From NCBI GenBank assembly GCA_963814275.1, contig CAWFCE010000002.1:1003263-1067262 (forward strand): a DNA stretch of 64,000 bases, read 5' to 3'. Under the pieces are notes generated by a model. It was not told the origin of the DNA. It saw only the letters and a program-made list of their open reading frames with translations, and did not search any database. Positions 1 through 21,725 of this stretch are shown here, one piece after another. Position 1 is the first letter of the stretch. Every line of letters begins with the position of its first letter. This DNA comes from Candidatus Parcubacteria bacterium (lineage in GTDB: Bacteria > Patescibacteriota > Patescibacteriia > Patescibacteriales > UBA12075). Made by a program: the position numbers and the translations under genes.

Positions 1-2
1 GG

Positions 3-1187
3 CAGGAGTTAGTTCTCGGTGATGTATCAAGGATATACGATGGCACACACCAAACTCCAGACTATGTTGAATCTGGTGTGCCTTTTTATAGCGTAGAACA
101 TGTAACATCAAATAATTTTTCTGATACTAAGTTTATATCCGAAGATATTTATTTAAATGAAAATGGAAGGGTGAGGGTAGAAAAAGGCGATATCTTAATG
201 ACTAGAATCGGTGATGTTGGGACAGCCAGACTTATAGATTGGGATGTCAAAGCGTCATTTTATGTATCGCTTGCTTTAATGAAGACCAATAATAAGGTGG
301 ACTCTAAATTTCTAGCTTATCAAATAAATTCTTATGAATTTATAAGAGAAATATGGGGAAAGACATTACATGTTGCATTTCCAAATAAAATTAATTTGGG
401 CGATATAAGTAAATGTAAAATAGTTCATCCACCCCTCCCCGAACAAAAACGGATCGTTAAGGTGCTGGAGGCTTGGGATGAGGTGATTGTGAAATTGACG
501 AGGAAGATTGAGATTAAGAAGAATATAAAAAAAGGTTTGATGCAGAGGTTGTTGACCCCGCCAAAGGGCGGGCAGGCGCCAAAGGTGCGGTTGCCGGGGT
601 TTACGGAGCCGTGGCAAAAATTAAAACTAGGGGAATGTATAAAAAGCGTCAGTAGCAGAAATAGAGATTTGAAAATTAACAGAGTTTTAAGCGTGACCAA
701 TAAAAATGGTTTTGTATTGCCGGCAGATCGTTTTGCAAGGGTAGTTGCCAGCGATGACCTTTCAAATTATAAGATAGTCAGAAAAGGACAATTTGCATAC
801 AATCCTTCTCGTATTAACGTAGGATCAATCGCGAGATTAGATAGCTACGATGAAGGAGCGCTTAGTCCTATGTATATAGTATTTAAAATTGAAAATTGTT
901 TAAATTCTGATTTTTTAAATCATTGGTTAAAAACCGGCGAGGCGAATTCACGTATTAGGAACATGGCCAGCGGGTCGGTGAGAGAGACTGTAGACTTTAA
1001 AAGCTTGTCCCTGATTAAGATTACACTTCCCGGAAGAGAAGAACAAGACAAAATAGCAGAAGTTTTAAACGTCTCGAATTCGGAAATAAATATACTGGAA
1101 AATAAATTGAATAAGTTAATAAACCAGAAGAAATATTTATTAAATAATTTAGTAACCGGGAGAATAAGAGTTCCGGAGAAAGTTTAA
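3..1187 (+). CDS. hsdS: Type I restriction-modification specificity subunit HsdS (5' end cut by window edge)
   Basis: Frame is open back to nt 3 (QELVLGDVSRIYDGTHQTPDYVESGVPFYSVEHV, a typical TRD start). Two variable target-recognition halves are separated by conserved helical spacers (PPLPEQKRIVKVLEAWDEVIVKL; LPGREEQDKIAEVLNVSNSEINILENKL). Confidence 0.85.
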   Translation, partial: QELVLGDVSRIYDGTHQTPDYVESGVPFYSVEHVTSNNFSDTKFISEDIYLNENGRVRVEKGDILMTRIGDVGTARLIDWDVKASFYVSLALMKTNNKVDSKFLAYQINSYEFIREIWGKTLHVAFPNKINLGDISKCKIVHPPLPEQKRIVKVLEAWDEVIVKLTRKIEIKKNIKKGLMQRLLTPPKGGQAPKVRLPGFTEPWQKLKLGECIKSVSSRNRDLKINRVLSVTNKNGFVLPADRFARVVASDDLSNYKIVRKGQFAYNPSRINVGSIARLDSYDEGALSPMYIVFKIENCLNSDFLNHWLKTGEANSRIRNMASGSVRETVDFKSLSLIKITLPGREEQDKIAEVLNVSNSEINILENKLNKLINQKKYLLNNLVTGRIRVPEKV

Positions 1188-1254
1188 TAAAAAATGTTAG
1201 GTGCGCAAGCGTCGGGATTGCTTCGTCGCTTCGCTCCTCGCAATGACATAAAAT

Positions 1255-4200
1255 ATGATTATTGAAGCTGATTTTGATGAAGCTAAACAGTCGCAGCTAC
1301 CGGCGGTGGAGCTGCTTATAAATATGGGCTATGTTTATTTGCCCCGGGAGCAGGTTATGGCTAGCCGCGGGGGTAATGCCGCGCGTTTTATTTTGAAAGA
1401 CATTGCTTATGAAAAATTGCGGGAGATCAATTCCTATGAATACAAAGGCGAAATATATAAATTTACCGATAAGAACATTAAGGACGCGGTTGATGAGCTC
1501 GATAATATCCAGCTGGAAGGGCTCATCGATACCTCCAAGGCGGTTTATGACATGATCATGCGGACCGGGGGCAAGACCATAACCGAAGTCGTGGACGGCA
1601 AAAAGACCTCGCAGAACTTCCGGTTTATCGATTTTGACAACCCGGCCAATAATATTTTCCATGTCAGCGTTGAATTCGAAGCCTCGGGCAAAGGCGATAT
1701 CCGGCCCGACATCGTCTGCTTCATCAACGGCATTCCGTTTGTCGTGATCGAAAACAAAAAATCCAGCGTCGATATAAAAGACGCGATCACGCAAATGCAC
1801 CGCAACCAGCAGCCGGAACACTGCCCGCGCCTTTTTATCTATCCGCAGCTTTTAATCGGCGCCAACAAATATAAATTCCAATACGGCACCACCGGCACAC
1901 CCGGTAAATTCTATACCGCCTGGAAAGAAAAAGGCTTGGCTGAAGAGGGCGTTACCGATAAAAAACAATTGGAACTGGACAAACAAGCCAGGCAGGCGGT
2001 TGAAGACAGGGCCAAAGAGCTGATCGCAAGGCCAATTGGCCAAGAAATTTATGCGCAAATACTGCGCGACCTAAACGGGGCGACCAAGAATCATACGCAA
2101 GTATTGGACCGCTTGCCGACTGAACAAGACAAGGGAATAGTTAGCCTACTTGAGCCGGCGCGCTTGTTCGAGCTCACCCGCAATTTTATCCTCTATGACG
2201 CCGGCATAAAAAAGGTGCCGCGCTATCAGCAATTTTTCGCCGTCAACAAAATCCTTCGGCAAATTGAGAGCGAAGAGCCGGGCAAGACCGGCGCGCGGCG
2301 CAAAGGCGGAATCGTCTGGCATACCCAGGGCTCGGGCAAATCGCTCACCATGGTGATGTTCGTCAAAGCCCTGATCGAGAAAAAGGAAATTGATAATCCG
2401 CGGATCATTATCGTAACCGACCGCCGGGATTTGAACAAGCAGATAGCCGATACTTTCCGGGATTGCAAACTGAAGAAAAAAGTCTATTCGCCCAAGAGCG
2501 GCCGGGATTTACTCCGGCAGATAAAAAATAAAAGCACGGACGTGATTACCGTGCTAGTGCATAAATTCGAAAGCGCGCGCTACTCCCGGGCGGACTTTTC
2601 TGATCCGGACAAGAATATCTTCGTGTTAATCGATGAGGCCCACCGCACCCAGGGCGGCGAGGCCAACCTGGAAATGAACCGCACTATCCCTAACGCCTGC
2701 TTTATCGCTTTTACCGGCACACCCCTCTTTAAAGAAGAAAAATCACAGCAGAAATTCGGCGAGTTTATCGACAAATACACGATCGACGATGCCTTGGCCG
2801 ACAAGGTGATATTGCCCCTGGTTTATGAGGGCCGCTATACGCAAATGAAGCAGGACCGGGAGAGAATGGACAAAAAAGTCGACCGCGTTTTAGACGGGCT
2901 AAAAACGGAACACAAGAAAATTCTGCAAGGCAAGGTGAGCGACGCGATTATCAAGAACAACCCCAACCGCATTACCGAAATCGCTTACGACATTGAACAG
3001 CATTTTATCGCCAATTTCCAAGGCACCGGCCTCAAAGGGCAAGTGGTTTCCCCTTCGAAATTTTCCGCCGTGCTATTTCAGGAGTATTTTGCCAAATCAG
3101 GCAAACTGGAACCCGGCGGTAGTGATATCAGACGTCGGCAGCAAAGAAGAAGACGAGGAAGACGATCACCGGAAACCGGTCCTTGATTTTCTAAGGCAAA
3201 AAAAGCATGAGTATAAAAGCCTGGAATCCTACGAAAGGCACGTAATCGACAGTTTTAAGAATAACCCGGACGGCGTCGAGCTGATTATCGTGGTCGACAA
3301 GCTACTTACGGGGTTTGACGCTCCGCGCAATACCGCCTTATGTGGCCAAAGACCTGCGCGACCACAACCTGCTCCAGGCGATTGCCCGGGTGAACCGCTT
3401 GTTCGAAGCCAAGCAACGCCGAAGACCTCCGGTTTTATCATCGACTATTCCGAAAATGCCAAGAATCTCGATACCGCCATGAAGCTATTCGGCAACTACG
3501 ACGATGACGATGTGAAATCCGCCCTGATCGATGTCAACGAAAAAATCCATGAACTGGAAAAGAGCTATGACATGCTTCATGAAATATTCAAGGATCTGAA
3601 AGGCACGCGCGACGATGAGGCCTACATCCAAAAATTATTCGAAGAGCCGGAGCGGGAGCTGTTTTACAAAGCGGTAAATGAATTTATTAAATTATTTAAC
3701 GAGTGCCTGGCTTTGCGGGAGTTTGCCAATGAATTCAAGGACCTCGACGTTTATAAAAATGAACTGGAAAAAATTCGATAATCTGCGGAAAACCGTCCGC
3801 ATCCGCTACGCCGATTCGATTGATTTTACCGAATACAAACAGCGTTTAGTTAAGATCCTTGATCAATACGTGGACGCCGAATCGGTGGAGATCATGACTA
3901 GGCAGATTAATATCAACGATAAAGAGGCGTTCGACCAGGCGATCGAAACCCTAGGGTCGAATAAGTCCAAAGCCGAAGCGATCGCCGCCCATACCAAGAA
4001 AACCATCCACGAAAGAGAGCATACGGATCCGGAATTCTATCGGCGTTTTTCCGACAAGATTGCCGATCTGCTCAATAAGCTGCACCAGAAGAAGCTGGAA
4101 GACCTGGAGGCCTTAAAGCAAATGAAAGAAATAAGCGCCCAGGTGATAAAAAAAGAAGATGAATCGATTCCGGCCGGTATAAAAAGTCCAAGGCGCGGAT

Positions 4201-4480
4201 ATATTTTACCGCAATTTACAATGTGAGTTTAAAAAGTATCGGCTTAGAGGGGGAAGCGTACAGTCAAATTATTTTAGACATATTCAGTCTGCTTAAAAAA
4301 GAAGCGATCGTCGATTGGTACCGGAATAGCGAGGTAAAAAGGATAATCACCAACAAAATCGATGACTATATTTATGACGAGGTAATTACCGAGCAAGGCA
4401 TAAAAATACCCAGCGAGGAAATTAAAAAAATAATAAATTCTATCATTGAGCTGGCGGTATTTAATCACGAAGTAATATAG
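1255..4480 (+). pseudogene. hsdR: Type I restriction enzyme R subunit HsdR, fragmented by multiple frameshifts
   Basis: Helicase motifs appear in the correct order but across changing frames: WHTQGSGKSLTMV (Walker A) and DEAHRTQ in frame 1; LLTGFDAPRNTAL in frame 2; YVAKDLRDHNLLQAIARVNRLFEAK in a third frame; then GFIIDY..., the C-terminal region, ADIFYRNLQ, and ...VDWYRNSEVKRIITNKIDDYIYDEV in further frames. Confidence 0.85.
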
Positions 4481-4532
4481 TATATATTCGCATGTCCCGC
4501 ATTTGTAGTGCGGGTGAGCGAAGCGAATAACA

Positions 4533-5252
4533 ATGACTAAACAGGTTTTTAGTTACGGCAAATATACTTATGATTATTATTTAATCAAGGAGGCGCGGCA
4601 AACGATCAGTTTGACCGTCAAGCCTGATTTGTCCGTGGTGCTCAAGAGCCCTATTGGCTACAGCAAAGAGAAAATCAATGCTTTTCTCAAGCGGAAATGG
4701 CTGTGGCTGGAAAAGCAGTTATCATTTTTTAAAAAGTTTCAGAATAATAATGGTAAAAAGGAATATATTTCCGGAGAAAGTTTTTTGTATTTGGGCCGGC
4801 AATATAAGTTGATTGTCTGCCAGGCCAAGAATAATCAGGTTAAGCTTGATCAAGGGAAGTTAATGCTGTTTACTAATGGTGGTGCGCGCAACGGCAAAAA
4901 TAATAAAAAAATTCTGGAAAAGTGGTACGAAGAAAAAACCAAGGATGTTTTATGCGCAAGATATCAAGAAGTATTGAAAAGTTTTAAAGTAAAAACAGTT
5001 CCTGATTTCGTTATAAAAAAAATGGATAAGCGCTGGGGCAGTTTTGTATCGAATAAAAAAATATTATTAAATCCTAAATTAATCCAAGCGCCGAAGTACT
5101 GCATCGATTACGTGATTACCCACGAGCTTTGCCACCTGGAGCGCAAGCGCCATGACAGCAATTTTTTTAAATTACTAGAGTCCAAGATTCCTAATTGGGA
5201 GAAGGTAAAGGAGAAGTTGGAGATGAAATTATTAACTGAAGGGAGGATGTAG
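4533..5252 (+). CDS. DUF45/YgjP-like (M48-type) zinc metallopeptidase, commonly linked to Type I R-M loci
   Basis: C-terminal HExxH motif (ITHELCHLERKRHDSNFFKLL) and overall YgjP-like layout; lies directly after hsdR. Confidence 0.8.
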   Translation: MTKQVFSYGKYTYDYYLIKEARQTISLTVKPDLSVVLKSPIGYSKEKINAFLKRKWLWLEKQLSFFKKFQNNNGKKEYISGESFLYLGRQYKLIVCQAKNNQVKLDQGKLMLFTNGGARNGKNNKKILEKWYEEKTKDVLCARYQEVLKSFKVKTVPDFVIKKMDKRWGSFVSNKKILLNPKLIQAPKYCIDYVITHELCHLERKRHDSNFFKLLESKIPNWEKVKEKLEMKLLTEGRM

Positions 5253-5260
5253 AAAATAAT

Positions 5261-6109
5261 ATGGGTGATGATATTATTGAGATTAAACCAAATTTTCATG
5301 GGTTGGGAGTAAATTTTAATGCTTTATATAAACGCATAATTAAAAAACAACCCAAAATTTCAGATATCCAAAATATCACTATGAGATTCGTACGAACATT
5401 CGAGGATCATGGTGTTGCTACCACTCAAATCCCACGATTAATCCCACAAATAAGCCTTGATAGCTTAAAAAATTTACCTGAGTCTTTAATCCCATCGCTT
5501 AATAATAAAGTAATTGATAAAGTTGTAAATTTATTTCAGATTAGACGCCAATGGATAGAAGGATTAAGCGTTCGGATGTATGATACATTGTGGTGTTATA
5601 AAAATCCTCATCGTTTTTTTAAAGATATCGCTAACCTTAATTTTAAAGAACCATTTTATTGTCCCATATTTGCTTTTTGCCAGTCAGATAAAATTGGTTA
5701 TAAACGATTTCGTGGTCAACCAATCGTTCTTGTACTTAACGAAAAAATTGTGGATTTGGATGATAATGAAATAAATCGATACAGAATTTATATGGATAGT
5801 TGGGACTGGGGATATTGGAAATGCCGTATACAATTAAAAGCCATGGTGCGTGTATTGTATATCCTCAAAGAAACTATAGTGCCTTTGTATAAAGTTAGTC
5901 CGGAGATTTTGGAAAAGATTAAGTCTGGTCGTCAAGTTCCGCATTCGTATATGATTGGAGCTAAGCGCTTACAAAATCTTTCACTTGAAGATTTTGTTTT
6001 GTATCCAAATGAAAGTGCAGTGTCCAAGGAATCAGATGAACTTGTTCAAGTTGAGAATTATATAGATAATTTCGATTTAGAAAATTTCGCTCGTAAAATA
6101 TTAAATTAA
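5261..6109 (+). CDS. hypothetical protein (282 aa), visibly AT-richer than neighbours
   Basis: Long uninterrupted ORF starting 9 nt after the DUF45 stop; no motif I recognise. Confidence 0.5.
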   Translation: MGDDIIEIKPNFHGLGVNFNALYKRIIKKQPKISDIQNITMRFVRTFEDHGVATTQIPRLIPQISLDSLKNLPESLIPSLNNKVIDKVVNLFQIRRQWIEGLSVRMYDTLWCYKNPHRFFKDIANLNFKEPFYCPIFAFCQSDKIGYKRFRGQPIVLVLNEKIVDLDDNEINRYRIYMDSWDWGYWKCRIQLKAMVRVLYILKETIVPLYKVSPEILEKIKSGRQVPHSYMIGAKRLQNLSLEDFVLYPNESAVSKESDELVQVENYIDNFDLENFARKILN

Positions 6110-6155
6110 TATTTAAAATTAATCTATATTATAATTTATATTACTTTTCAAACCT

Positions 6156-6364
6156 ATGACCAGACGCAAAACCGAGGACAAAAATATCCGTAAAATCTTT
6201 ATCCCGTTAAATAGTTTTCAAATTTAACAGGGTGAAAATCAGGCTCCAGTTACGCCGTCACGATTCCGCTCGAGATTGTAGACGCAATGAATATCCGCAA
6301 GGGGCAAAAGGTGGTGGTGAAGCGGAGCGGGAAAAGAATTATTATTGAGGATTGGGAAAGATGA
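6156..6364 (+). pseudogene. AbrB/SpoVT/MazE-like small DNA-binding protein, disrupted
   Basis: MTRRKTEDKNIRKI... runs into a stop after 23 codons. The typical swapped-hairpin segment (KSGSSYAVTIPLEIVDAMNIRKGQKVVVKRSGKRIIIEDWER*) continues in another frame with no start codon. Confidence 0.4.
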
Positions 6365-6395
6365 CATTTGACCTTTGACTTTTAACATTTAACAT
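6362..6395 (+). repeat. Heptad array GACNTTT x ~5 (left copy of a 33-34 nt direct repeat)
   Basis: tGACATTTGACCTTTGACTTTTAACATTTAACAT, ending 1 nt before the ATG at 6396. Confidence 0.8.
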
Positions 6396-6854
6396 ATGTC
6401 AAAAAATATGAAACCAATTAAAACAATCGCCGGGAAAGTTCTTTTGTATTTTTATTATGTGCAAAGGACAGATACGGCCAAACTCTTTGATTTGGTTTTG
6501 AATTTCCAGATGAGAGACTTAAATAGCCGACAGGAAGAAATGCCCATCTTGGGAAGAACAGATACTTTGGTCCAAAAAAATCTATTAAAGCTTACCGATA
6601 CTGCCAATAACCTATTTAACGCCCTTCGGTATTTGAGGGACTTGGATTTTATCGAGATGAAATACTCGCCGGACAGAACCAACGATCATTTTTCCCTCTT
6701 CCGCGTCAAGTCCGGCGGGGTGGACGCTATCGAAGCAATCCTCAGGGGCAAAGAAGAAAAAGAGGAGTTTTATACTACATTTAACATCAAGCTACCTGAT
6801 AAAACCGATATTGAGAGCCTGCTTGAAAAACAGTTAGGCAGTTTGTATGAATGA
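6396..6854 (+). CDS. hypothetical protein, paralog A (possible winged-helix-like)
   Basis: ORF is about two-thirds identical by eye to 7789..8235. The true start may be the second Met (MKPIK, nt 6408), as in the paralog. Confidence 0.6.
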   Translation: MSKNMKPIKTIAGKVLLYFYYVQRTDTAKLFDLVLNFQMRDLNSRQEEMPILGRTDTLVQKNLLKLTDTANNLFNALRYLRDLDFIEMKYSPDRTNDHFSLFRVKSGGVDAIEAILRGKEEKEEFYTTFNIKLPDKTDIESLLEKQLGSLYE

Positions 6855-6865
6855 ACATACGTTCA

Positions 6866-6898
6866 TGACATTTGACACCTGACTTTTGACATTTGACG
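6866..6898 (+). repeat. Heptad array GACNTTT x ~5 (right copy of the direct repeat)
   Basis: tGACATTTGACACCTGACTTTTGACATTTGACg, starting 12 nt after the stop of the 6396..6854 ORF. Confidence 0.8.
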
Positions 6899-7047
6899 AA
6901 TTATTTTTTCTGATCTTATTAAGAATGGTGAACGGAAGTCGGTCGATTTTATTGTAAAGCAATTAGAGGAGTTGGAGAAAAAGGGAGCTATAAAGTCCGT
7001 TTTGAAAGCAATGAAATAATAATTATCAATTATGAATATACAAGAGC

Positions 7048-7069
7048 CAGCCTTACCGGGCTGTTTTTT
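7048..7069 (+). terminator. Rho-independent terminator candidate
   Basis: cagcc-ttaccg-ggctg followed by tttttt. Confidence 0.5.
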
Positions 7070-7137
7070 GTTTGTCTTTGGAGTTTTTGGTATAATAAAA
7101 TTAATCTATACTATAATCTAGATTATTAAATAATGAT

Positions 7138-7627
7138 ATGACCAGAAAAAAAATCGAGGATATTATTGTCCGGCGGGCAAAAATAAAAGACATCGATGAT
7201 CTTCGTATATTGTACATAGAATTTATGAAATACCACGGCCGTATTGACCCGTTGTTGAAGATCACGAGTAAACCGGACGAAGAGGCGGCAAAGTATTTAA
7301 GAAAAACCATATACGGACGGGATACTATTTTGTTGGTGGCGGAAAGATCCGGCCGCATCGTCGGTCTTTTGGGCGCCGGGGTTAGCAAAATCCCTCCGAT
7401 TTACCGTTATCGTGATTTTGGGGTTATTTTCGACTTGTTTGTGTCAGGAACCACATCGCAGGCAAGGCATAGCCAGGCTAATGGTCCAGACTGCATTGGA
7501 TTGGTTCAAAGAAAAAGGAGTCAAAAGAATCGAAGTGGGGATGAGCGCCGCCAATGAACCGGCCATAAAGACCTGGGAAGGGCTCGGCTTTCAAAATGTT
7601 TTCTTTCGCAAGAGAAAAATAATATAG
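7138..7627 (+). pseudogene. GNAT family N-acetyltransferase with one frameshift near nt 7440-7450
   Basis: The N-terminal part (…RSGRIVGLLGAGV…VIFDLFVS) and the acetyl-CoA-binding part (QEPHRRQGIARLMVQTALDWFKEKGVKRIEVGMSAANEPAIKTWEGLGF) lie in different frames. Confidence 0.75.
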
Positions 7628-7788
7628 ATTATAATCTGGATTAAAACCGAAAAATTTTCTTTCCATTTGCCAAGAAAAAAATAAAATCCCGCCATGATGC
7701 TTTGGTAAAAATTATTGGTTAAAAAATTAATTAAATTACCCGCCTTCGTCCTTCGACAGGTTCAGGACTACGGCGAGGCAAGGAATAT

Positions 7789-8235
7789 ATGAAACCAATC
7801 AAAACGATCGCCGGGAAAGTTCTTTTGTATTCTTATTTTGTCCAAAGGACAGATTATGCCCGACTCTATGACACAGCTTTTAATTTTCATATGAGAGACT
7901 TTAATGCAAGACAAGAAAAAATGCCCATATTGGGCGGGAAAGATAGTTCGACCATAAAAAATCTATTGGAACTTACCGATAATGACAATAACCTTTATAA
8001 TGCCCTTAAGTATTTGGAGGACAAAGGTTTTATCTCCATGAAATGCACTTCGGACAGGGTTTGCGATCTTATTTCTGAGCTCCGCGTCTTATCCAACGGG
8101 GTGGATGTGATAGAAGCCATCCTAAGGGGCGAAAAAGAAAGACAAGAGTTTTATACTACGTTTAACATCAAGTTAGTGGATAAAATCGATATTGAGGGCC
8201 TGCTTGAAAAACAATTAGGCAGTTTGTATAAATGA
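7789..8235 (+). CDS. hypothetical protein, paralog B of 6396..6854
   Basis: 148-aa ORF with AAGGA upstream of the ATG. N-terminal 14 aa and C-terminal ~45 aa are nearly identical to paralog A. Confidence 0.6.
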   Translation: MKPIKTIAGKVLLYSYFVQRTDYARLYDTAFNFHMRDFNARQEKMPILGGKDSSTIKNLLELTDNDNNLYNALKYLEDKGFISMKCTSDRVCDLISELRVLSNGVDVIEAILRGEKERQEFYTTFNIKLVDKIDIEGLLEKQLGSLYK

Positions 8236-8264
8236 ATATAACCCGCCCGGGATCGTGGATGCAC

Positions 8265-9036
8265 GGGTTCAAATAATGAACCCCTACGACGCGGCGGCCC
8301 TCACCCGCCACGGGTGCGACCGGGGCACCCTCTCCCACTCGCGCGGGTCGCGGGAGAGGGAAAATAGGAAAAACATATTATATCGCGATATCGTGTAGGG
8401 GCACAGGATTCTGTGCCCTGGTGTTAGGATGATGAAGATGGTATGGACGCGTAATGGTTTGAAAAGAAATCTATTCGTCTTTAAACCTTCGTGGAACGGG
8501 TTCAGAATCCTGAACCCCTACAGATCGGGTTATAAACGGACGGGGGATACGCGGGTTCAGAATCCTGAACCCCTACAAAATATATAAGACATTGTATGCG
8601 CCGCGTAGGGGCACAGGATTCTGTGCCCTGGTGTTAGGACGATGATGATGGTATTGACGCGTGATGGTTTGAAAAGAAATTAATCATATTTAAACCTTCG
8701 TGGAACGGGTTCAGAATCCTGAACCCCTACAGATTGGGTTATAAACGGACGGGGGATACGCGGGTTCAGAATCCTGAACCCCTACAGATCGGGTTATAAA
8801 CGGACGGGGGATACGCGGGTTCAGAATCCTGAACCCCTACAAAATTGACAAGACATTGTATGCGCCGCGTAGGGGCACAGGATTCTGTGCCCTGGTGTTA
8901 GGACGATGATGATGGTATTGACGCGTGATGGTTTTAAAAGAAATTGTTCGTATTTAAACCTTCGTGGAACGGGTTCAGAATCCTGAACCCCTACGACGCG
9001 GCGGCTTCGCCCGCTTGCGCGGGTCGCGGGAGAGGG
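8265..9036. repeat. REP-like hairpin array 1 (7 class-A and 3 class-B hairpins in about 3 higher-order units)
   Basis: Class A GGGTTCAGAATCCTGAACCCCTAC at 8265 (degenerate), 8498, 8553, 8707, 8762, 8817, 8971. Class B GTAGGGGCACAGGATTCTGTGCCC at 8395, 8605, 8869. Confidence 0.95.
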
Positions 9037-9143
9037 GAGATGGGGGAAATATATAATGCGTATGGGTTTGAGGATTTCGTGCTTTGGCAATATTTTGCGA
9101 AAAATAGCTATTAGGAGGTTGATAGAGACAAACGGAAATTAGT

Positions 9144-9176
9144 AAAAAAAATGACGTCATCGGGGGATGACGTCAT
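9144..9176 (-). terminator. Rho-independent terminator for the minus-strand small-protein pair
   Basis: atgacgtcat-cggggg-atgacgtcat hairpin with a 7-nt U-run on the minus strand. Confidence 0.65.
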
Positions 9177-9215
9177 ATGTTTTACAGGTATTTTAAAGGA
9201 CGTGTTAGATTGGCA

Positions 9216-9482
9216 TTAATCTTCGTTGTTGTTGTCGCAAACAACGCAGGAGCCGCCATCCGTTATATGGCCGCAGGATGAACATCTGATCGGATCGCCT
9301 TCGTCGTTTCTCGTTCTGACAAACCTTGTTGTTTCATAATTTCTCTTGCTGGACATTGTCTTCGGTTGGCCAGAAGAATTTGCTTTTTTGCTCCCGGTTG
9401 TTCCGGAATCTTGTTTGCTCCCCTTTGAAGCAAGAATAAAGATAAATACTACGATAAACAATATTATCCAAAATCCTTCCAT
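9216..9482 (-). CDS. small membrane-anchored zinc-ribbon protein (88 aa)
   Basis: AAGGAG SD; N-terminal TM helix (FWIILFIVVFIFILA); C-terminal CSSCGHIT-x5-CVVCDNN. Confidence 0.65.
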   Translation of the reverse strand: MEGFWIILFIVVFIFILASKGSKQDSGTTGSKKANSSGQPKTMSSKRNYETTRFVRTRNDEGDPIRCSSCGHITDGGSCVVCDNNNED

Positions 9483-9501
9483 TTATATTCTCCTTTTTGT
9501 G

Positions 9502-9759
9502 TCAATCATTGTTGTCGCAGTATGAGCAGTATCCATCATTAAAAGTGACGTTACCGCAAGTTGAACAGATTTTTCCCTCGCTTTTACTGTTTGGTTCTAC
9601 ACTTGAGTGATAGATGGCACTATATGGTTTTGTGTATTTTTCCGCCTCCTTTGCCCTTACTTTTTTCTCTGTGGGTTTGTCCTTGCCATTCTTGCCGCCC
9701 AGGGCCAGTAAAATCAATAAGCCAAAGATGAATAACGCGATCGATGCTTCTCCGGACAT
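9502..9759 (-). CDS. small membrane-anchored zinc-ribbon protein (85 aa), tandem paralog of 9216..9482
   Basis: AGGAGG SD; N-terminal TM helix (IALFIFGLLILLAL); C-terminal CSTCGNVT-x5-CSYCDNN. Confidence 0.65.
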   Translation of the reverse strand: MSGEASIALFIFGLLILLALGGKNGKDKPTEKKVRAKEAEKYTKPYSAIYHSSVEPNSKSEGKICSTCGNVTFNDGYCSYCDNND

Positions 9760-10015
9760 TTTGCACCTCCTTGATTGATAGTTGTATATTGGATTTTGGT
9801 GTTGAACAATTATTTTATTTCAATATCACATTTGCATGATAACGATTCAGTATATATTATTCCATTATAAAATGTCAATTTTGCCAAAACATATTATTTA
9901 TTCAGATAGGTTTATTCGCCAATTATGGCCATTTTTGCTATAATGAAATTAATCTAGACCATGATCCGGTTTATAATTAATTCCGAAACACTCGGTACCA
10001 TACAGAAAAACAAAT

Positions 10016-10483
10016 ATGAGCGTCCAGGAGATCGTAAAAAGAGGAAAATTGACGCCTAAGGGCGTGGCAAGAGTCCTCAAAATAATAGATAAGTATATGT
10101 TTATCTTGAAATATGCTTACTTGGACGCGAAAAACTCCCGTACCTATTGGGAACAGGCCAAAGAATATTATGAACATGAAGATTGCGACGAATCGGACAC
10201 CGATAATCTATATTATCTGGCGATAAAAATAAGCGCGGCCAAGAAAGAATTGTTTTATATTTACGCCAAAGACGTTTTCGAGTTTTTCTACGTCAATTAC
10301 CGGGAAAAAGCGGATGAATATTACTACCACCAATTCCCCCTGGACAGGAAGCGCTACGAAAAAGAGCGCGTACCCATAGCCAGATTAAAACCCCTGTTGG
10401 ACAACAAGAATTATCTGGACGAGGAATTTGTAAATCTGATCGAAGAAACCGCGGCAGTGTTCCATAAATGCCTGAAGAAATAA
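10016..10483 (+). CDS. hypothetical protein (155 aa, Tyr/Glu-rich)
   Basis: ORF only; a TGcTATAAT promoter-like element lies upstream at 9937-9944. Confidence 0.5.
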   Translation: MSVQEIVKRGKLTPKGVARVLKIIDKYMFILKYAYLDAKNSRTYWEQAKEYYEHEDCDESDTDNLYYLAIKISAAKKELFYIYAKDVFEFFYVNYREKADEYYYHQFPLDRKRYEKERVPIARLKPLLDNKNYLDEEFVNLIEETAAVFHKCLKK

Positions 10484-10497
10484 CAAGTCCGTGCATA

Positions 10498-11139
10498 GGG
10501 TTCAGAATCCTGAACCCCTACAAAATTTCGAAAAATGCTATATTTAAATTAATATTAAATATGGACTCAAGGAGGAGGAAACAAATACGATTGTTGGATT
10601 ATGATTATTCGCAGGAAGATGCTTATTTCATCACCATATGTACAAACAATCGAATTTGTCATTTCGGTGAAATCAAAAATGATAAGATGTTATTGAATAG
10701 TACCGGTAAGGCCGCGGATTATTATTGGCAGGAAATTCCGGCACATTATCCGAGGGCGGTCTTAGACGAATATACCGTTATGCCCAATCATATTCACGGT
10801 ATAATTATTATCGACAAGGATCACGATACGTCTGTGAACAGGGAATTTCCTACGCAATCAGCGCAACCGGATGATTCGATTAACCGGTTCCAACACATAA
10901 TTCCGAAATCTATCGGGTCAATAATTCGGGGGTATAAACTAGGCATGACCAAATGGGTCAGAGAACATACAAAAACCAATACGATATGGCAACGGTCATA
11001 TTATGACCATATCATCCGCGACGAGAAAGCAATGGACGAAATCAGGGCATATATTATAAATAATCCCGGCAATTGGGATAACGACCGAAATAACCTTAAA
11101 AATTATCACCCAACCGTAGGGGCACAGGATTCTGTGCCC
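10498..11139 (+). mobile_element. RAYT unit: class-A hairpin, Y1 transposase gene, class-B hairpin (IS200/IS605-like architecture)
   Basis: Class-A hairpin at 10498-10521 and oppositely oriented class-B hairpin at 11116-11139 bracket the transposase ORF. Confidence 0.8.
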
Positions 11140-11148
11140 TGGTGTTAG
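10561..11148 (+). CDS. REP-associated tyrosine transposase (RAYT), IS200-like Y1 HUH family
   Basis: MDSRRRKQIRLLDYDYSQEDAYFITICT… N-terminus typical of the family; HUH motif MPNHIHGII; catalytic Tyr region WQRSYYDHIIRDE. The track start at 10468 would read through the upstream hairpin, so Met at 10561 is preferred. Confidence 0.85.
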   Translation: MDSRRRKQIRLLDYDYSQEDAYFITICTNNRICHFGEIKNDKMLLNSTGKAADYYWQEIPAHYPRAVLDEYTVMPNHIHGIIIIDKDHDTSVNREFPTQSAQPDDSINRFQHIIPKSIGSIIRGYKLGMTKWVREHTKTNTIWQRSYYDHIIRDEKAMDEIRAYIINNPGNWDNDRNNLKNYHPTVGAQDSVPWC

Positions 11149-12200
11149 AACGATGACGATGGTATTGACGCGTGATGGTTTTAAAAGAAATTGTTCGTAT
11201 TTAAACCTTCGTGGAACGGGTTCAGAATCCTGAACCCCTACAAAATTGACAAGACATTGTATGCGCCGCGTAGGGGCACAGGATTCTGTGCCCTGGTGTT
11301 AGGACGATGATAATGGTATTGACCCGAAATGGTTTGAAAAGAAATTAATCATATTTAAACCTTCGTGGAACGGGTTCAGAATCCTGAACCCCTACAGATC
11401 GGGTTATAAACGGACGGGGGATACGCGGGTTCAGAATCCTGAACCCCTACAAAATTGACAAGACATTGTATGCGCCGCGTAGGGGCACAGGATTCTGTGC
11501 CCAGGTGTTAGGTTGATAAAGGTGGTATTGACGCGTAGTGGTTTGAAAAGAAATTATTCGTTTTGAAAATCTTCGTGGAGCGGGTTCAGAATCCTGAACC
11601 CCTACAGATCGGGTTATCAACGGACGGGGGATACGCTGGTTCAGAATCCTGAACCCCTACAAAATTGACAAGACATTGTATGCGCCGCGTAGGGGCACAG
11701 GATTCTGTGCCCAGGTGATAAGATCAATAAGGATGATTTTAACGCGTGATGGTTTGAAAAGAAATTAATCGATTTAAAAACCTTCGTGGAACGGGTTCAG
11801 AATTCTGAACCCCTACAGATCGGGTTATCAACGGACGGGGGATACGCGGGTTCAGAATCCTGAACCCCTACAAAATTGACAAGACATTGTATGCGCCGCG
11901 TAGGGGCACAGGATTCTGTGCCCAGGTGATAAGATCAATAAGGATGATTTTAACGCGTGATGGTTTGAAAAGAAATTATTCGTTTTGAAAATCTTCGATG
12001 ATCGGGTTCAGAATTATGAACCCCTACAGATCGGGTTATAAACGGACGGGGGATACGCGGGTTCAGAATCCTGAACCCCTACAAAATTGACAAGACATTG
12101 TATGCGTCGCGTAGGGGCACAGAATCCTGTGCCCAGGTGTTAGGACGATAACGATGGTATTTACGTATTATGGCTCGAAATGATATAAATCATTTTGGGC
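11116..12200. repeat. REP-like hairpin array 2 (9 class-A and 6 class-B hairpins in about 5 higher-order units plus a degenerate tail)
   Basis: Class A at 11218, 11372, 11427, 11582, 11637 (tgg variant), 11793, 11848, 12004, 12059. Class B at 11116, 11270, 11479, 11689, 11900, 12111. Confidence 0.95.
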
Positions 12201-12365
12201 ACTTCCTCACCCAGGATTCAGGATGTCTGATCGATGCAGGATATATCCATTTTATTGACATAGACGCCTTCGTCCCGTAAACGCGCATAACAGGTGATTT
12301 TTGCCTACTGGCCGTTAAAAGGATATAATTATATTAAAGGTTATTATTCAATTGATTAATCGATT

Positions 12366-13205
12366 ATGAAGACCAAAAAAACCATAGTATTTCTGGCTTG
12401 CACTCTGCTTCTGGCTGGATGCGAAGCCAAAGTCAATTTCGACAGTCTCCTTTCCGTTGACGAAGAGCGGCAAAAAGCGGTCGAGGCGCAGAACCCGGCC
12501 CTCTGCGCCGGGCTTGACGCGGAAAACGATGAGAAAACACAGACCCGTCGGGACCGTTGTTATGAAGAAGTGGCCATCGCCGCCAAAAAAAGCGATGTCT
12601 GCCAAGAGATCGGTGATGAAACCAGGAAGGACAACTGCCTGGCCACAGTGGCCAAGGAAACGAATGATGAAACAGTTTGCCGGCAGATCGATATTGAAAA
12701 CGAGCGTGATGCCTGCCTTATCAAAGTGGCCAAAGGAAAAGAGGAATTGTCCGTCTGCAGTTTGATCGGAAATGAAAGTGATCGGGAATTATGTGTTGAA
12801 GCAGTGGCAAGAGCGAAGGGTACGCCGGAAATATGCGATAACCTGGACAACGACCAGGCCCAGGGCTGGTGCTACGGCGAGGTCGCGTTGGCCAGGCGCG
12901 ATCCGTCAATCTGCCGGTCAATTGAAGACGATTACATGCTGGTGAAGTGCTACAGCCGCATGGCCCAAAGCCAGGCCGATATTTCCGTCTGCAGCGGCCT
13001 TAAGGATTCGTTCCTGAACGAACAGTGCCGATATTTTTACGGTATGGCCCGGCCCACGGCAGACGTGTGCCGTGACCTTCAGACTGAAGAATGGCATGAC
13101 CAGTGTCTGGCCCGCGCCGCCCAGCAGATGAAAGACCCGTCCCTTTGCGGGGAGCTTAAGGATACCCAGCTCCAGAAACAATGCGAAACCGGTGCCGGCG
13201 GATAG
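12366..13205 (+). CDS. lipoprotein with ~8 tandem Cys-pair repeats
   Basis: Signal peptide with lipobox (LLLAGC). Repeated ~34-aa unit of the form C..I....RD.C...VA. Confidence 0.7.
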   Translation: MKTKKTIVFLACTLLLAGCEAKVNFDSLLSVDEERQKAVEAQNPALCAGLDAENDEKTQTRRDRCYEEVAIAAKKSDVCQEIGDETRKDNCLATVAKETNDETVCRQIDIENERDACLIKVAKGKEELSVCSLIGNESDRELCVEAVARAKGTPEICDNLDNDQAQGWCYGEVALARRDPSICRSIEDDYMLVKCYSRMAQSQADISVCSGLKDSFLNEQCRYFYGMARPTADVCRDLQTEEWHDQCLARAAQQMKDPSLCGELKDTQLQKQCETGAGG

Positions 13206-13317
13206 GGGAGGACTGGTTTTGAATTTTAAAATTCGTGGAAAAATATTAATAGCAATAGTTGGATGGATATTGCGAAGAGGGCAGTGGCCTGTTCCCGCGG
13301 AAGGGTAAAGCGGGTTA

Positions 13318-13944
13318 ATGGCGATAGCTGTGAGAAATTACGGTACTATAATGGCTGGAAAAAAATATAACAACAAGGATCTGGTGCAGGGGGCCGGCAG
13401 CCTTTGGCTGTTGGTCATTGTTGTTATTTATTTTGGCGACCGGAGAATATTCTATCAGGTTTTGGTCTTGAGCCTGATCGCCCTGGGCCTTTTGTTGGGA
13501 TTGGTGGCAATAGTCAGGAAAAGGCGCTTTGGCCATATTCTGGAACAATCAGACGGACAACGGCAATTGGCAAAGCTTAGACAGATGAAGCCGGATGAAT
13601 TCGAGGACTTCATCGCCGACCTTTACCGCCGCCTGGGCTATGCGACCGAACGGGTGGGCGGCTCGCCTGGCGGAGGCATAGACGTCACCGCCAAAAAGAA
13701 CGGAGTGATATACTATATCCAGTGTAAGAAATTCATAAATTCAAAAGTAACCATCCATAATGTCCGGGATTTTTATGCTACGATGGCTAATAATCTGGCT
13801 GCCGGCAAAGGCATATTCATCACCACCAATATATTCACCGCAGAGGCGATCAAATTTGCCGCAGACAGGCCGTTGGCATTGATCGACGGAGTTAACTTAT
13901 TAACGCTAATAAAACAGGCCGGGAAAGACGATCAACCAACCTGA
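13318..13944 (+). CDS. membrane-anchored restriction endonuclease-like protein (Mrr_cat-type domain)
   Basis: Two N-terminal hydrophobic helices, then FEDFIADLYRRLGY…GGIDVTAKKNGVIYYIQCKKF…VRDFYATMA…GIFITT, matching the Mrr catalytic-core pattern. Start codon uncertain. Confidence 0.65.
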   Translation: MAIAVRNYGTIMAGKKYNNKDLVQGAGSLWLLVIVVIYFGDRRIFYQVLVLSLIALGLLLGLVAIVRKRRFGHILEQSDGQRQLAKLRQMKPDEFEDFIADLYRRLGYATERVGGSPGGGIDVTAKKNGVIYYIQCKKFINSKVTIHNVRDFYATMANNLAAGKGIFITTNIFTAEAIKFAADRPLALIDGVNLLTLIKQAGKDDQPT

Positions 13945-14068
13945 TAATAATATTCAAGGTCCGGATAATAGTCGCCTGTCAGGGCGCTTATTTTATTTGA
14001 CTAATCCCGTATAATCCGCTAATTTGTAGTGACGCACATCTTGAATAAAACAAAAAGGAGGTGGGGTA

Positions 14069-19688: not shown

Positions 19689-21623
19689 ATGGAGAATGAA
19701 AACATCGCTCAAGATGAGCCGAAACAGGAGAAAATCGAAACCGTTAAAAAGGAGGACAAGCCTGTGCCCAGGGCAGGCAGCTTGTTTGCTAGGATCTGGG
19801 GCTGGGTGATTTTTGTTTTGTTTGCATTAGCGTTTTTCATGCTTTATATCGGCGGCCAGAGCGGTCTCAACGCGGAGATACGCGATATCGGAAACAGCGA
19901 AATGATCGGCATATTCAGTACCTGGAGTCCTTATGCCGGTATCATCTTAGCCCTGTTGTCGCTGGTGGTGTATATGCTTTTGCTCGGTATAAAGCGTCTG
20001 GCCAGATTGAAGAAACTTACCTGCTTAAATCCGGTCCTGTTGGCTATTTCATTTCTGCCTTGGTTTCTCCTGGCGCGCCAGCTCGTATATTTCGAACCCC
20101 GTTATACCGATATCGCCAAGGCATTGATCAGTTTCATCGGCGAACCACTTTATGATGCTACTGTATTCGTTTTTATCCTGTCGGCCCTTTGGCTGATCCT
20201 GTTGATTACAGTCAGATTTGCCGGGAAACCATCCAAGACAGCCGCGCTGGTTATATTGCTTGCCGCCAGCCCGCTTTTTCTTTCCGGCTGTGTCGGCGCG
20301 CTAATGGGCATTGTCTGTGATTTCATGCCGGAAGCGGACCATTGCTTCCAGGGTGCGGCAGTCCAGGAGGGCGATCCCAGCGGCTGCGACAAAGTAGAGG
20401 GGGAAGGTTTTACCGGGTCGAATCCTCCCCGTGATAAGTGCTATCTCATGATCGCGGAAAACACCGGCGACCTGTCCGCTTGCGACAATATCGAAGGTGG
20501 GCCTATGTCTTATACACGGGAAGAATGCATCCTGGGGGCCGCGGTCAAATTTGAGGATGCGGCCGGCTGCCGGATGCTCACCGGCACCGACAAAAGCGAA
20601 TGCATCGCCCAGGTCGGCCCGAAGATGGAGCCGGGAAGCGTGATTGAGATCGATGACCAGATCGCGCTTTTGCGGGAGGAATTGAAGAAAGGGGCTGATC
20701 CGGACCTGGAAAAGCAGCTGCAGGGTTTGACGCAAAAACGCACCGATATCCTGGATATCATGAGTGATACGAACAGACAGAATTATGAATCGATGTCCGA
20801 TCCCCTGAACCGGGCGGCGAGTCTGGATTATCACTTGGGCAAGATCGACGCGAAGACCCGGGATACCCTGGTCGAATTGAACGACCGGTTGCGCGCGCGG
20901 GGGGAGAGCATGAACGAGACTGATTATCAGAAACTGCGCGATGTGCTGGCCTACAAGAACGACCCCAAAAACGATATCGAGAATATGGACGAACGGGAAA
21001 TGTTGAAAAAGCGCTGGAACGAAAAATTAGGCAGCGCGGTCGATTATCTGAAATTCTGGAATGCCAACCCGACCGCCACCGAGCAGAAATACGACGAACA
21101 GCTATTCATGTACGAGCGCATGCTGGAGCGGCAGGCGGCGATCGATAAAGGCCTAAGTGAACGCCAGCAGGACATCGACCGCAATCTCGGCATGGTCAAA
21201 GATGCCCTCAAGGATAAGGCTTGGTCGACGGCGACGGACGAAGCGAAAAAAGCCGCCTTTGGCGAGCTGATGGACCTGGTAGACTCATCGGCCGAAGCGC
21301 CGGTGACTGCAGTCCTGGGCGAGGCGATCGATACGGTCAAAAAAGAGGCAAAATCGGCCGAGTTCCGCGGCCTGGTGCGCGCCTATAATCTCGGCATGGA
21401 AGAAGAGCTGGCCAAAGCCGGCGGCAACATCGAACGGGCGCACGAGATCGTGACGGCGAATTTGCAGAAAGACCCCTATATGTATGAGGACAAGAATTCT
21501 TTCGCCAAATACGGCAATGTCCTGGAGAACAAAGATTGCGACGGCACTAACCCGCATTGTATCAACCGCGATGTATTCTGGAAAGCGATGAAAAAATCGT
21601 ACAAATACCAGAATCAAGTTTAG
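19689..21623 (+). CDS. multi-pass membrane protein with Cys-pair repeats and a long charged/helical C-terminal region
   Basis: About 5-6 hydrophobic helices in the first 210 aa. Residues ~215-310 repeat the C…D.C…A motif seen in 12366..13205. Confidence 0.6.
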   Translation: MENENIAQDEPKQEKIETVKKEDKPVPRAGSLFARIWGWVIFVLFALAFFMLYIGGQSGLNAEIRDIGNSEMIGIFSTWSPYAGIILALLSLVVYMLLLGIKRLARLKKLTCLNPVLLAISFLPWFLLARQLVYFEPRYTDIAKALISFIGEPLYDATVFVFILSALWLILLITVRFAGKPSKTAALVILLAASPLFLSGCVGALMGIVCDFMPEADHCFQGAAVQEGDPSGCDKVEGEGFTGSNPPRDKCYLMIAENTGDLSACDNIEGGPMSYTREECILGAAVKFEDAAGCRMLTGTDKSECIAQVGPKMEPGSVIEIDDQIALLREELKKGADPDLEKQLQGLTQKRTDILDIMSDTNRQNYESMSDPLNRAASLDYHLGKIDAKTRDTLVELNDRLRARGESMNETDYQKLRDVLAYKNDPKNDIENMDEREMLKKRWNEKLGSAVDYLKFWNANPTATEQKYDEQLFMYERMLERQAAIDKGLSERQQDIDRNLGMVKDALKDKAWSTATDEAKKAAFGELMDLVDSSAEAPVTAVLGEAIDTVKKEAKSAEFRGLVRAYNLGMEEELAKAGGNIERAHEIVTANLQKDPYMYEDKNSFAKYGNVLENKDCDGTNPHCINRDVFWKAMKKSYKYQNQV

Positions 21624-21725
21624 GCGGCCTTAAAACAAATATTCAGCAGTTTTAAATTAATTGCCATATTAAAGAAGGGTAGTCCGGGGGACTACCCTTC
21701 GATCATTAATGCAGGCGTTTTCCGG

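Follow-up and report, generated by a model that had tools for sequence, protein, structure and literature searches.

Tandem arrays of REP hairpins on both sides of a RAYT gene in a Patescibacteria genome

Repetitive extragenic palindromic sequences (REPs) form small DNA hairpins which REP-associated tyrosine transposases (RAYTs) are thought to mobilise, and the REP-RAYT arrangement is a familiar one from E. coli and Pseudomonas. Here we deal with a repeat found in a stretch of 64,000 nucleotides (nt; the whole of it is called the window below) from a Candidatus Parcubacteria bacterium (assembly GCA_963814275.1, contig CAWFCE010000002.1, positions 1,003,263 to 1,067,262). The host is of the Patescibacteria/Parcubacteria type: its DnaB is 84% identical to that of 'Parcubacteria group bacterium ADurb.Bin316' and 82% identical to a protein from Falkowbacteria. 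The source contig has 1,274,625 bp. An earlier note on this DNA described the repeat as a higher-order repeat with two hairpin classes, A and B, and a third hairpin between them. According to our analysis, it is made up of clustered REP hairpins, small palindromes tandemly amplified on both sides of a RAYT gene. What the earlier note missed is that A and B are one inverted element with a 5' GTAG, and that a RAYT gene lies between the arrays. The presence of this gene explains the whole feature as a cluster of REPs and bacterial interspersed mosaic elements (BIMEs) which would act as single-stranded DNA hairpins. In our opinion it is highly probable that the locus is a REPtron, i.e. a single RAYT gene flanked by arrays of its cognate REPs, organized like BIMEs or like REP doublets forming hairpins (REPINs).

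In the E. coli REPtron, tandem y/z2 REP pairs flank the tnpA_REP (yafM) gene (Ton-Hoang et al. 2012, PMC3333891). BIME-2 elements are found there as tandem copies, variable in number, and strand transfer by TnpA_REP builds tandem BIMEs in vitro (PMC3333891). The E. coli enzyme binds single-stranded REPs via GTAG and the hairpin, and it cleaves at CC|T in an inverted REP or in the linkers; GTAG-dependent binding and cleavage of single-stranded REPs has been shown for this enzyme only (PMC3333891). In P. fluorescens SBW25, ordered tandem REPIN clusters adjoin each RAYT (Bertels & Rainey 2011, PMC3116915). The family relevant to our locus has two names. It is Group 4 of the RAYTs as defined by Bertels et al. 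2017 (PMC5581495), who found only low-abundance flanking 16-mers for it, and it equals subclass 2.4 of TnpA_REP, which has NH[IFV]H, WQ and YIxNNP as its signature and 194 aa as its median length (PMC6006769, Table 1). The REPs of subclass 2.4 are either 'long canonical', with three G-C foot pairs, or 'double foot' (GTAG...CTAC) (Quentin et al. 2018, PMC6006769). REPs located in frame inside tnpA_REP, between HuH and Y, are a unique feature of this subclass, predominant and not obligatory (PMC6006769).

Anatomy and layout of the REP arrays

The complete feature extends over approximately 8265-12240 and consists of two tandem arrays and a solo hairpin, which bracket the open reading frame (ORF) 10561-11148. 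The extent given to the repeat earlier, 8395-8868, does mark a real repeat, but it holds only two of the nine units. Hairpin A (GGGTTCAGAATCCTGAACCCCTAC) is present in 16 exact or near-exact copies and hairpin B (GTAGGGGCACAGGATTCTGTGCCC) in nine, while dinucleotide-preserving shuffles give an expectation of 0 for either; a 17th match in the search for A is the palindrome's own minus-strand echo and was left out of the count.

The unit can be written as B - L1 (78-80 nt) - A - [M (31 nt) - A] x 0-2 - L2 (28 nt), and the number of A hairpins in it is one, two or three. Array 1 (8395-8994) comprises three units joined by L2, with L1 of 78-79 nt and with the bracketed M - A module present once, twice and not at all. 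Its B-type REPs (GTAG, 8-bp stem and GATT loop) are on the plus strand at 8395-8418, 8605-8628 and 8869-8892, and its A-type REPs, with GTAG on the minus strand, at 8498-8521, 8553-8576, 8707-8730, 8762-8785, 8817-8840 and 8971-8994. Array 2 (11116-12134) comprises five full units and a terminal B, after which a decayed L1 continues to about 12200. The plus-strand B-type REPs of this array are at 11116-11139 (overlapping the RAYT 3' end), 11270-11293, 11479-11502, 11689-11712, 11900-11923 and 12111-12134, the terminal one being a variant with an inverted loop (AATC). Its minus-strand A-type REPs are at 11218-11241, 11372-11395, 11427-11450, 11582-11605, 11637-11660 (one mismatch), 11793-11816 (one mismatch, in the loop), 11848-11871, 12004-12027 (two mismatches) and 12059-12082. 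A representative L1, running tail-to-tail from B to A, is found at 8629-8706; it is the variable part of the unit and holds a weak AT-rich third hairpin (GGTTTGAAA...TTTAAACC). M, which together with A forms the 55-nt module, is represented by 8731-8761, and L2, running head-to-head from A to B, by 8841-8868; both are nearly invariant.

The spacing rules of the earlier note are all reproduced from the copy coordinates. The B-to-B distances are 210 and 264 nt in array 1 and 154, 209, 210, 211 and 211 nt in array 2; A-to-A spacing within a unit is always 55 nt, which confirms the modular 55-nt step; B to the first A is 102-104 nt, and the last A to the next B is always 52 nt. The program TRF independently gives periods of 209, 55, 264, 154 and 211.

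Read on the minus strand, A is GTAGGGGTTCAGGATTCTGAACCC, and comparison with plus-strand B makes it clear that the two are one element in opposite orientations: GTAG is followed by an 8-bp stem, which has a GGG/CCC foot and carries a GATT loop. By definition a REP is a palindrome of 20-40 nt with a G+C-rich basal stem and a loop of 2-5 nt, and it has a 5' GT[AG]G at a distance of 0-2 nt from the hairpin foot. The size is that of a REP (24 nt, a perfect 8-bp stem with its first three pairs G-C, a 4-nt loop), and the REP tetranucleotide is in its place: GTAG directly adjoins the stem in 25 of the 25 intact copies, on the plus strand for B and on the minus strand for A. Hence the anatomy is that of a GTAG-type REP, and that of the inverted A/B pairs is the anatomy of a BIME or REPIN; it is because A and B are one element on opposite strands that the arrays can be called BIME- or REPIN-like within a REPtron. 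The 5' GTAG, the two stem variants and the inverted orientation are all common to the E. coli REPtron. Unlike in E. coli, where TnpA_REP requires a stem mismatch, the stems in the window are perfect.

Two comparisons bear on the structure of the stems. Within the window, the sequences of A (minus strand) and B are identical except at four positions, which together make up two compensated pairs, one changed from T-A to C-G and the other from T-A to A-T. This difference was not picked by selection for hairpins, unlike the second set, nine hairpin variants from ten genomes, in which GTAGGG/CCC is kept, five of the eight stem pairs (the inner ones) change on both sides and 98.6% of cells are paired (none of 500 shuffles is as high); the variants were chosen as hairpins, and the 98.6% figure is therefore descriptive. 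Because the A/B differences form compensated pairs, and because the hairpins of other genomes keep GTAGGG...CCC and swap the inner stem, a structural constraint on the A and B stems is supported. Single-stranded DNA folds of constructs with A and/or B hairpins are also far more stable than shuffles (z = -2.9 to -5.1). The earlier suggestion of selection on secondary structure holds for these two stems, but not for the third hairpin, which is discussed below.

The segment A-L2-B folds into two separate hairpins. In the minimum-free-energy fold of B-L1-A, B pairs with A as a long REPIN-like hairpin (-20.8 kcal/mol), and the centroid consists of two separate REP hairpins (-19.5 kcal/mol). In the minimum-free-energy fold, as well as in the inverted REPs and the length of the spacer between them (about 70-110 nt in SBW25 and 78-80 nt in B-L1-A of the window), the locus is similar to the SBW25 REPINs (PMC3116915), and in both cases the clusters are made of tandem near-identical units, including flanking sequence, which adjoin a RAYT. 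In contrast to SBW25, the long hairpin of the window is not clearly preferred over two hairpins (the two energies above), no part of the unit is less conserved than the spacer and the RAYT belongs to Group 4 rather than Group 3. A genome-wide REPIN population like that of SBW25 is not in evidence here, the copies in the window being confined to the RAYT neighbourhood.

The alternation of B(+) and A(-) REPs with fixed linkers, L1 of 78-80 nt and L2 of 28 nt, is that of a BIME. As in the E. coli REPtron, the tandem copies at the locus are well conserved, short linkers are conserved and others variable, and copy number is modular. The departure from strict alternation, by which the window differs from E. 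coli, consists of additional A copies in direct orientation, attached via the 31-nt M linker. The arrays are extragenic: convergent genes (8235 / 9216) border array 1, array 2 is found in the interval from the RAYT gene to ORF 12366, and the sole overlap with a gene is that of the B at 11116 with the last 10 RAYT codons.

Array 1 is bracketed by a direct repeat of 105-130 nt, in which an A REP comes first and is followed by a GC-rich tail. The left copy opens with a degenerate A-type REP (GTAGGGGTTCATTATTTGAACCC, 8265-8287, minus strand) and proceeds at 8288-8390 with the GC-rich tail (GACGCGGCGG...CGCGGGTCGCGGGAGAGGG) and then an AT-rich end; the right copy has as its first element the last A REP of array 1 (8971-8994), and its GC-rich part is at 8995-9065. 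These GC-rich segments, directly after an A REP on both sides of array 1, have about 75% G+C within a region of about 42% G+C, and no further copy of them is found in the window. The left one holds a 31-nt insert, absent from the right one, which creates a CCCTCTCCC/GGGAGAGGG inverted repeat.

The borders of the modules are precise at the hairpin foot. An A module abuts four different right-hand contexts (M, L2, the GC-rich tail and the RAYT leader), in each case exactly at the end of ...CCCCTAC, and it also abuts four left-hand contexts; B abuts three left-hand contexts, with the junction exactly before GTAGGGG. All 26 GTAGGG-footed hairpins of the 64-kb window, i.e. the 25 intact ones and the degenerate one, fall within 8265-12134, around the RAYT, and none of the six other GTAGGG sites in the window has a hairpin. 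A separate 17-nt palindrome with GTAG/CTAC ends, GTAGTCCGGGGGACTAC, was noticed at 21679-21695, just past ORF 19689-21623; the sequence of its stem is unrelated to the A/B family.

The RAYT gene and its relatives

Judged by its sequence, ORF 10561-11148 (plus strand, 195 aa) is a RAYT/TnpA_REP, i.e. an HUH/Y1 tyrosine transposase-like protein, of subclass 2.4 / Group 4. It matches the NCBIfam family NF047646 'REP-associated tyrosine transposase' (E = 1.2e-14, 54.4 bits) and Pfam Y1_Tnp (24.7 bits, above the gathering score of 23), and a profile of the protein with 15 homologues matches only PDB 4ER8, which is E. coli TnpA_REP (E = 2.1e-5). There are 1497 homologues at E <= 1e-3, several of them named by their source 'REP element-mobilizing transposase RayT', and the best non-self relative among 5.8 billion proteins is 56% identical. 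The catalytic motifs are intact: PNHIHG (H77, H79) for HUH, W143-Q144 for WQ and Y164-IINNP for the Y motif. In an alignment of 16 RAYT sequences H77, H79, W143, Q144 and N168 are invariant, and Y164 is kept in at least 90%. These motifs, the length (195 aa against a median of about 194 aa) and the 'long canonical' REPs with three G-C foot pairs are those of subclass 2.4 (PMC6006769), or Group 4 (PMC5581495), and as far as sequence can tell the protein and hairpins of the window fit the published description.

The position of the gene relative to the REPs is worth attention. A solo A-type REP (10498-10521, minus strand), the flanks of which share CGTG... / ...AAAATT with the array context, is located 39 nt upstream of the start codon, and the C-terminal VGAQDSVPWC with the stop codon is encoded by the first B and L1 of array 2. 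The gene occupies the 'L2 position', between an A and a B with their GTAG feet facing it, and the arrays lie beyond, the REPs being found together with their apparently cognate RAYT. This parallels the E. coli REPtron (PMC3333891), where a single Y1/HUH RAYT also has REPs in variable numbers on both sides. Unlike the E. coli enzyme, the window RAYT belongs to subclass 2.4, not 2.2, and the two are only distantly similar. The IS200/IS605 elements, with their TnpA Y1 and subterminal hairpins, are comparable in the type of enzyme (HUH/Y1), in the recognition of single-stranded DNA hairpins, which is predicted for the window RAYT, and in the tetranucleotide guide at the hairpin foot; they differ from the window, where the flanking hairpins are inverted and not on one strand, there is no TnpB, the motif is the RAYT-type Y---NP and nothing has the look of a discrete transposing unit.

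We compared eight loci with RAYT homologues to the window. In seven of the eight, a GTAGGG...CCCTAC hairpin resides inside the RAYT homologue gene and encodes VGVQNxEPL, as it does in the subclass 2.4 clade, whose members are scattered across phyla and have 'double-foot' REPs and in-frame REP insertions between HuH and Y. Hairpins of the same family flank the RAYT homologue on both sides in one Kuenenbacteria locus (L014) and downstream in another (L023). The window is different: of the in-gene REP nothing but a decayed remnant is left in its gene, its REPs are single-foot, and its RAYT is flanked by 25 intact REPs and one degenerate REP in ordered arrays, unlike the RAYT in any of the eight loci. 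RAYT homologues of this clade are often found in defence islands, with Eco57I-like type IIG enzymes, PLD-SNF2 helicases and SIR2 among the neighbours at L009 and L010 and with HEPN/nucleotidyltransferase pairs at L011-L014; at L023-L026 they are instead among housekeeping genes.

In GTDB genomes the exact A 24-mer occurs only as isolated, mostly double-foot hairpins in unrelated phyla: on four contigs of one Bacteroidia metagenome-assembled genome (MAG), in a Spirochaetia MAG, Desulfomonile, a Chitinophaga MAG and Ca. Magnetocorallium. These loci were checked for the hairpin and for a RAYT only. The exact B 24-mer is present in eight JGI metagenome contigs, again only as isolated hairpins, and the B-bearing JGI loci have no match to the linkers (blastn, both arrays) and no RAYT (tblastn, window RAYT as query). 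Neither A nor M nor the L2-B junction is matched in IMG/VR. The composite unit was seen nowhere else within these searches, in which exact-pattern scans for M and L2 covered IMG/VR alone and none was aimed at L1; it is thus unseen elsewhere, not excluded. No contig of the same organism turned up in the metagenome or GTDB scans either. The exact A and B 24-nt hairpins of other genomes are mostly parts of 28-nt 'double-foot' palindromes, and the associated RAYTs are only about 50% identical. Identity of 24-nt hairpins across phyla at about 50% identity of the RAYTs suggests that the hairpin either is very tightly constrained or spreads horizontally. In one of the loci examined, L006 (Bacteroidia MAG), approximately eight tandem GGTAGGG heptamers precede a REP foot at about 4240-4300, apparently a microsatellite-like expansion of the GTAG foot, and at the matching position L005 has a (TCATTCGG)n run.

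Variation among the units and the weighing of explanations

Point variation had been placed by the earlier note mostly in the linker between B and A, and this is confirmed: 33 of 81 columns vary in L1 versus 11 of 107 when A, B, M and L2 are pooled (Fisher p = 1.5e-6). The mean pairwise difference amounts to 0.16 in L1 and to 0.02-0.04 in the other segments. Per site, the polymorphism of L1 exceeds that of the REPs, M and L2 about 3- to 6-fold by theta_W, and about 4- to 8-fold by mean pairwise difference. Modular change of copy number, also claimed earlier, is evident, and so is exchange between units. Unit 8 is a mosaic of the left half of unit 7 and the right half of unit 6, its L1 taking the first 53 nt from that of unit 7 and the next 22 nt from that of unit 6. 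Across the arrays, units 3 pair with 4 and units 2 with 5, and a block of 235 nt common to both arrays is 97% identical. Such mosaic units fit recombination or RAYT-driven local amplification.

The third hairpin has a different fate. It was said to keep its stem while its loop varies, and in the alignment of nine B-to-A segments, from which the pair counts are taken, seven of the eight proposed pairs (GGTTTGAA/TT-TAAACC) do hold in the eight full units. However, the central pair is G-T in three of these units and non-standard in five, two changes are from G-C to G-T, and no change is compensated except in the decayed terminal copy. In the same alignment the B stem is invariant and the A stem varies in decayed copies only. 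Only the left arm of the third stem, GGTTTGAAAAGAAAT, is conserved, while the right arm drifts (AAACC to AAATC); this is not the pattern of selection on a stem. The covariation score of the whole structure in the nine-unit alignment is 0.080 versus 0.071 in shuffles, with 100 of 500 shuffles as high, so the third stem shows nothing beyond copying. Folded alone as DNA, the hairpin reaches -2.9 kcal/mol, no better than shuffled sequence (z = 0.03). With neither covariation beyond copying nor excess stability, we rejected a selected third stem; it is just a part of the drifting L1 and at most the tip of the long REPIN-like hairpin, a position it does take in the minimum-free-energy fold of B-L1-A.

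If the locus is a REPtron, its history might be pictured as follows. In the single-stranded state, such as that of the lagging-strand template, the hairpins would extrude. By analogy to E. coli TnpA_REP, the RAYT would bind the GTAG-footed hairpin, cleave at or near the inverted foot (CC|TAC) and rejoin strands, and in this way it may seed and re-copy REP-bounded modules beside existing REPs. Slippage and unequal recombination between identical 24-nt hairpins would add or remove 55-nt (M+A) modules and units of about 210 nt, and selection or continual re-copying would keep REPs, M and L2 near-identical while L1 drifts. That the RAYT of the window binds and cleaves these hairpins is, as we infer, likely from its E. 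coli counterpart, and any single change in copy number may be the work of the enzyme or of recombination.

Several observations weigh against a REPtron, and we do not wish to diminish them. The classical hallmark of REPs is many dispersed copies, and in the other ~60 kb of the window there is no REP of the A/B family, which sets the locus apart from E. coli, as does its host, a member of the Patescibacteria with a genome of about 1.3 Mb. Tandem arrays are present in none of the eight homologue loci, hence they are no general property of the clade. The score of 54 bits for NF047646 is below the NCBIfam equivalog cutoff of 80 bits, which is expected for a subclass other than that of E. coli, yet it is a failed curated threshold. 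The in-gene hairpin typical of the subclass is lost, with only a decayed remnant (DTSVNREFPT) in its place, and 10800-10870 folds no better than shuffles (z = -0.52). Finally, RecA-dependent or slippage events between identical hairpins would explain the differences in copy number equally well, and the activity of the enzyme is an extrapolation from E. coli.

The last point can be taken further, to arrays that change only by slippage and unequal homologous recombination next to a RAYT which is domesticated or an inactive relic. Copy-number steps of exactly one period (55 or about 210 nt), with breakpoints that cannot be placed within identical 24-nt hairpins, agree with such a passive satellite; mosaic units and the 97% identical inter-array block resemble gene conversion; and both the lack of dispersed copies in the window and the low-abundance flanking 16-mers of Group 4 RAYTs (PMC5581495) point the same way. 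Nevertheless, we find it quite unlikely. All catalytic motifs of the RAYT are intact, neutral copying of whole units fails to predict the roughly 3- to 6-fold contrast (theta_W) between REPs, M and L2 on the one hand and L1 on the other, modules join differing contexts exactly at the GTAG foot, and the same hairpin family accompanies RAYT homologues across phyla. The earlier note also raised an RNA reading, by which the units are transcribed and processed to small RNAs and the three stems are selected as RNA. The A/B hairpins are indeed stable, units fold at z of about -4.4 to -5.1, no terminator separates the RAYT gene from array 2, which is probably co-transcribed as a 3' untranslated region, and E. 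coli REPs are known to affect mRNA stability (PMC3333891). Still, we regard this reading as very improbable: a scan of 6000-14000 on both strands gives no Rfam family at E <= 1, neither promoter-like nor terminator-like sites repeat at the unit period (the only strong terminator, 9151-9176, falls outside the arrays), the third stem lacks covariation and excess stability, the long linker, which would be the bulk of such RNA, is the most variable part of the unit, and the GTAG tag with an adjacent HUH enzyme points to recognition of single-stranded DNA.

Still less credit, to the point of being negligible, can be given to an adaptive or defence array of the CRISPR kind, or to an assembly artefact of a collapsed or expanded repeat. 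Regularly spaced palindromic repeats do occur here in a defence-rich area, with a type I restriction-modification (R-M) system at 78-4226 and an Mrr-type restriction endonuclease at 13318-13944, and tandem repeats mis-assemble easily. But the would-be spacers M, L2 and L1 are themselves repeated, not unique, repeats are in both orientations, no cas genes lie beside the arrays and neither the RAYT nor its direct neighbours have a PADLOC match; on these grounds a CRISPR-like array was excluded. A simple collapse or expansion is unlikely in view of unit-specific substitutions and the consistent mosaic pattern.

Other candidates were tried and discarded. A defence-system reading of the arrays was dropped, as PADLOC on the RAYT and nine neighbours matches only the Mrr-like nuclease 13318-13944. 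A coding repeat was rejected because the lengths of the units (154, 209, 210, 211 and 264) and of the module (55) are not all divisible by 3; the ORFs running across the arrays, such as 8821-9090 on the minus strand, are read-through of REPs. A tRNA gene as integration site was rejected since the nearest one is 30 kb away, and replication-origin iterons were rejected since the cumulative GC skew climbs monotonically through the window.

Returning to the REPtron, the unexplained higher-order repeat becomes an ordinary feature which can be annotated as a REPtron with BIME-like arrays. The gain, a modest one, is the record of a REP/RAYT system with ordered tandem amplification in a Patescibacteria genome of about 1.3 Mb, of the Candidate Phyla Radiation (CPR); in one full-text search for REP/RAYT together with Patescibacteria terms, none of the top-ranked papers spoke of RAYTs. 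It is of interest also as a member of subclass 2.4 / Group 4, for which REPs are reported to be of low abundance and usually in the gene rather than in flanking arrays. The near-invariance of REPs, M and L2 next to a drifting L1 gives a handle that could help to separate enzyme-driven re-copying from plain recombination. We would add a speculation, rather doubtful in our own eyes, that in this streamlined genome the RAYT and its REPs may still be active, though at their own locus only, where M+A and A-L2-B modules are re-copied in cis; re-copying of REP-bounded modules in cis would explain why their polymorphism per site is about 3- to 6-fold below that of L1. Were this correct, the locus would be a self-contained 'REP nursery' and not part of a REPIN population spread over the genome, no REP/BIME system would have been documented earlier in the CPR, and nature would offer here a case in which to study how a Group 4 RAYT amplifies locally; abundant REPs have so far not been linked to this group.

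Neighbourhood of the locus

The surroundings of the RAYT are rich in defence genes (window 1-6109 and 13318-13944), with type I R-M and an Mrr-type nuclease. The HsdR-like type I restriction subunit is apparently split over three overlapping frames (1255-3186, 2993-3781 and 3678-4226), which suggests frameshifts or a pseudogene.

Closer to array 1 there are several small ORFs preceded by a promoter-like module of about 43 nt, TTTTTGGTATAATAAAATTAATCTATACTATAATCTAGATTAT, at 6102-6144, 7084-7126, 7602-7644 and 9932-9974. Inverted promoter-like copies at 7101-7127 and 7618-7644 bracket an ORF which an apparent frameshift divides over two frames, 7138-7557 and 7412-7627; the former is without a Pfam match. 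Two paralogous ORFs with no assigned function, 6396-6854 (152 aa) and 7789-8235 (148 aa), are 75% identical in DNA over 300 nt and have no Pfam or PADLOC match; the former lies between two direct repeats of 33 nt (6361-6393 and 6865-6897), both rich in TGACATTTGAC. On the other side of array 1, two adjacent small paralogous ORFs on the minus strand, 9216-9482 and 9502-9759, each have a hydrophobic N-terminus and two C-terminal CxxC pairs, and after them comes a perfect 11-bp bidirectional terminator hairpin at 9151-9176.

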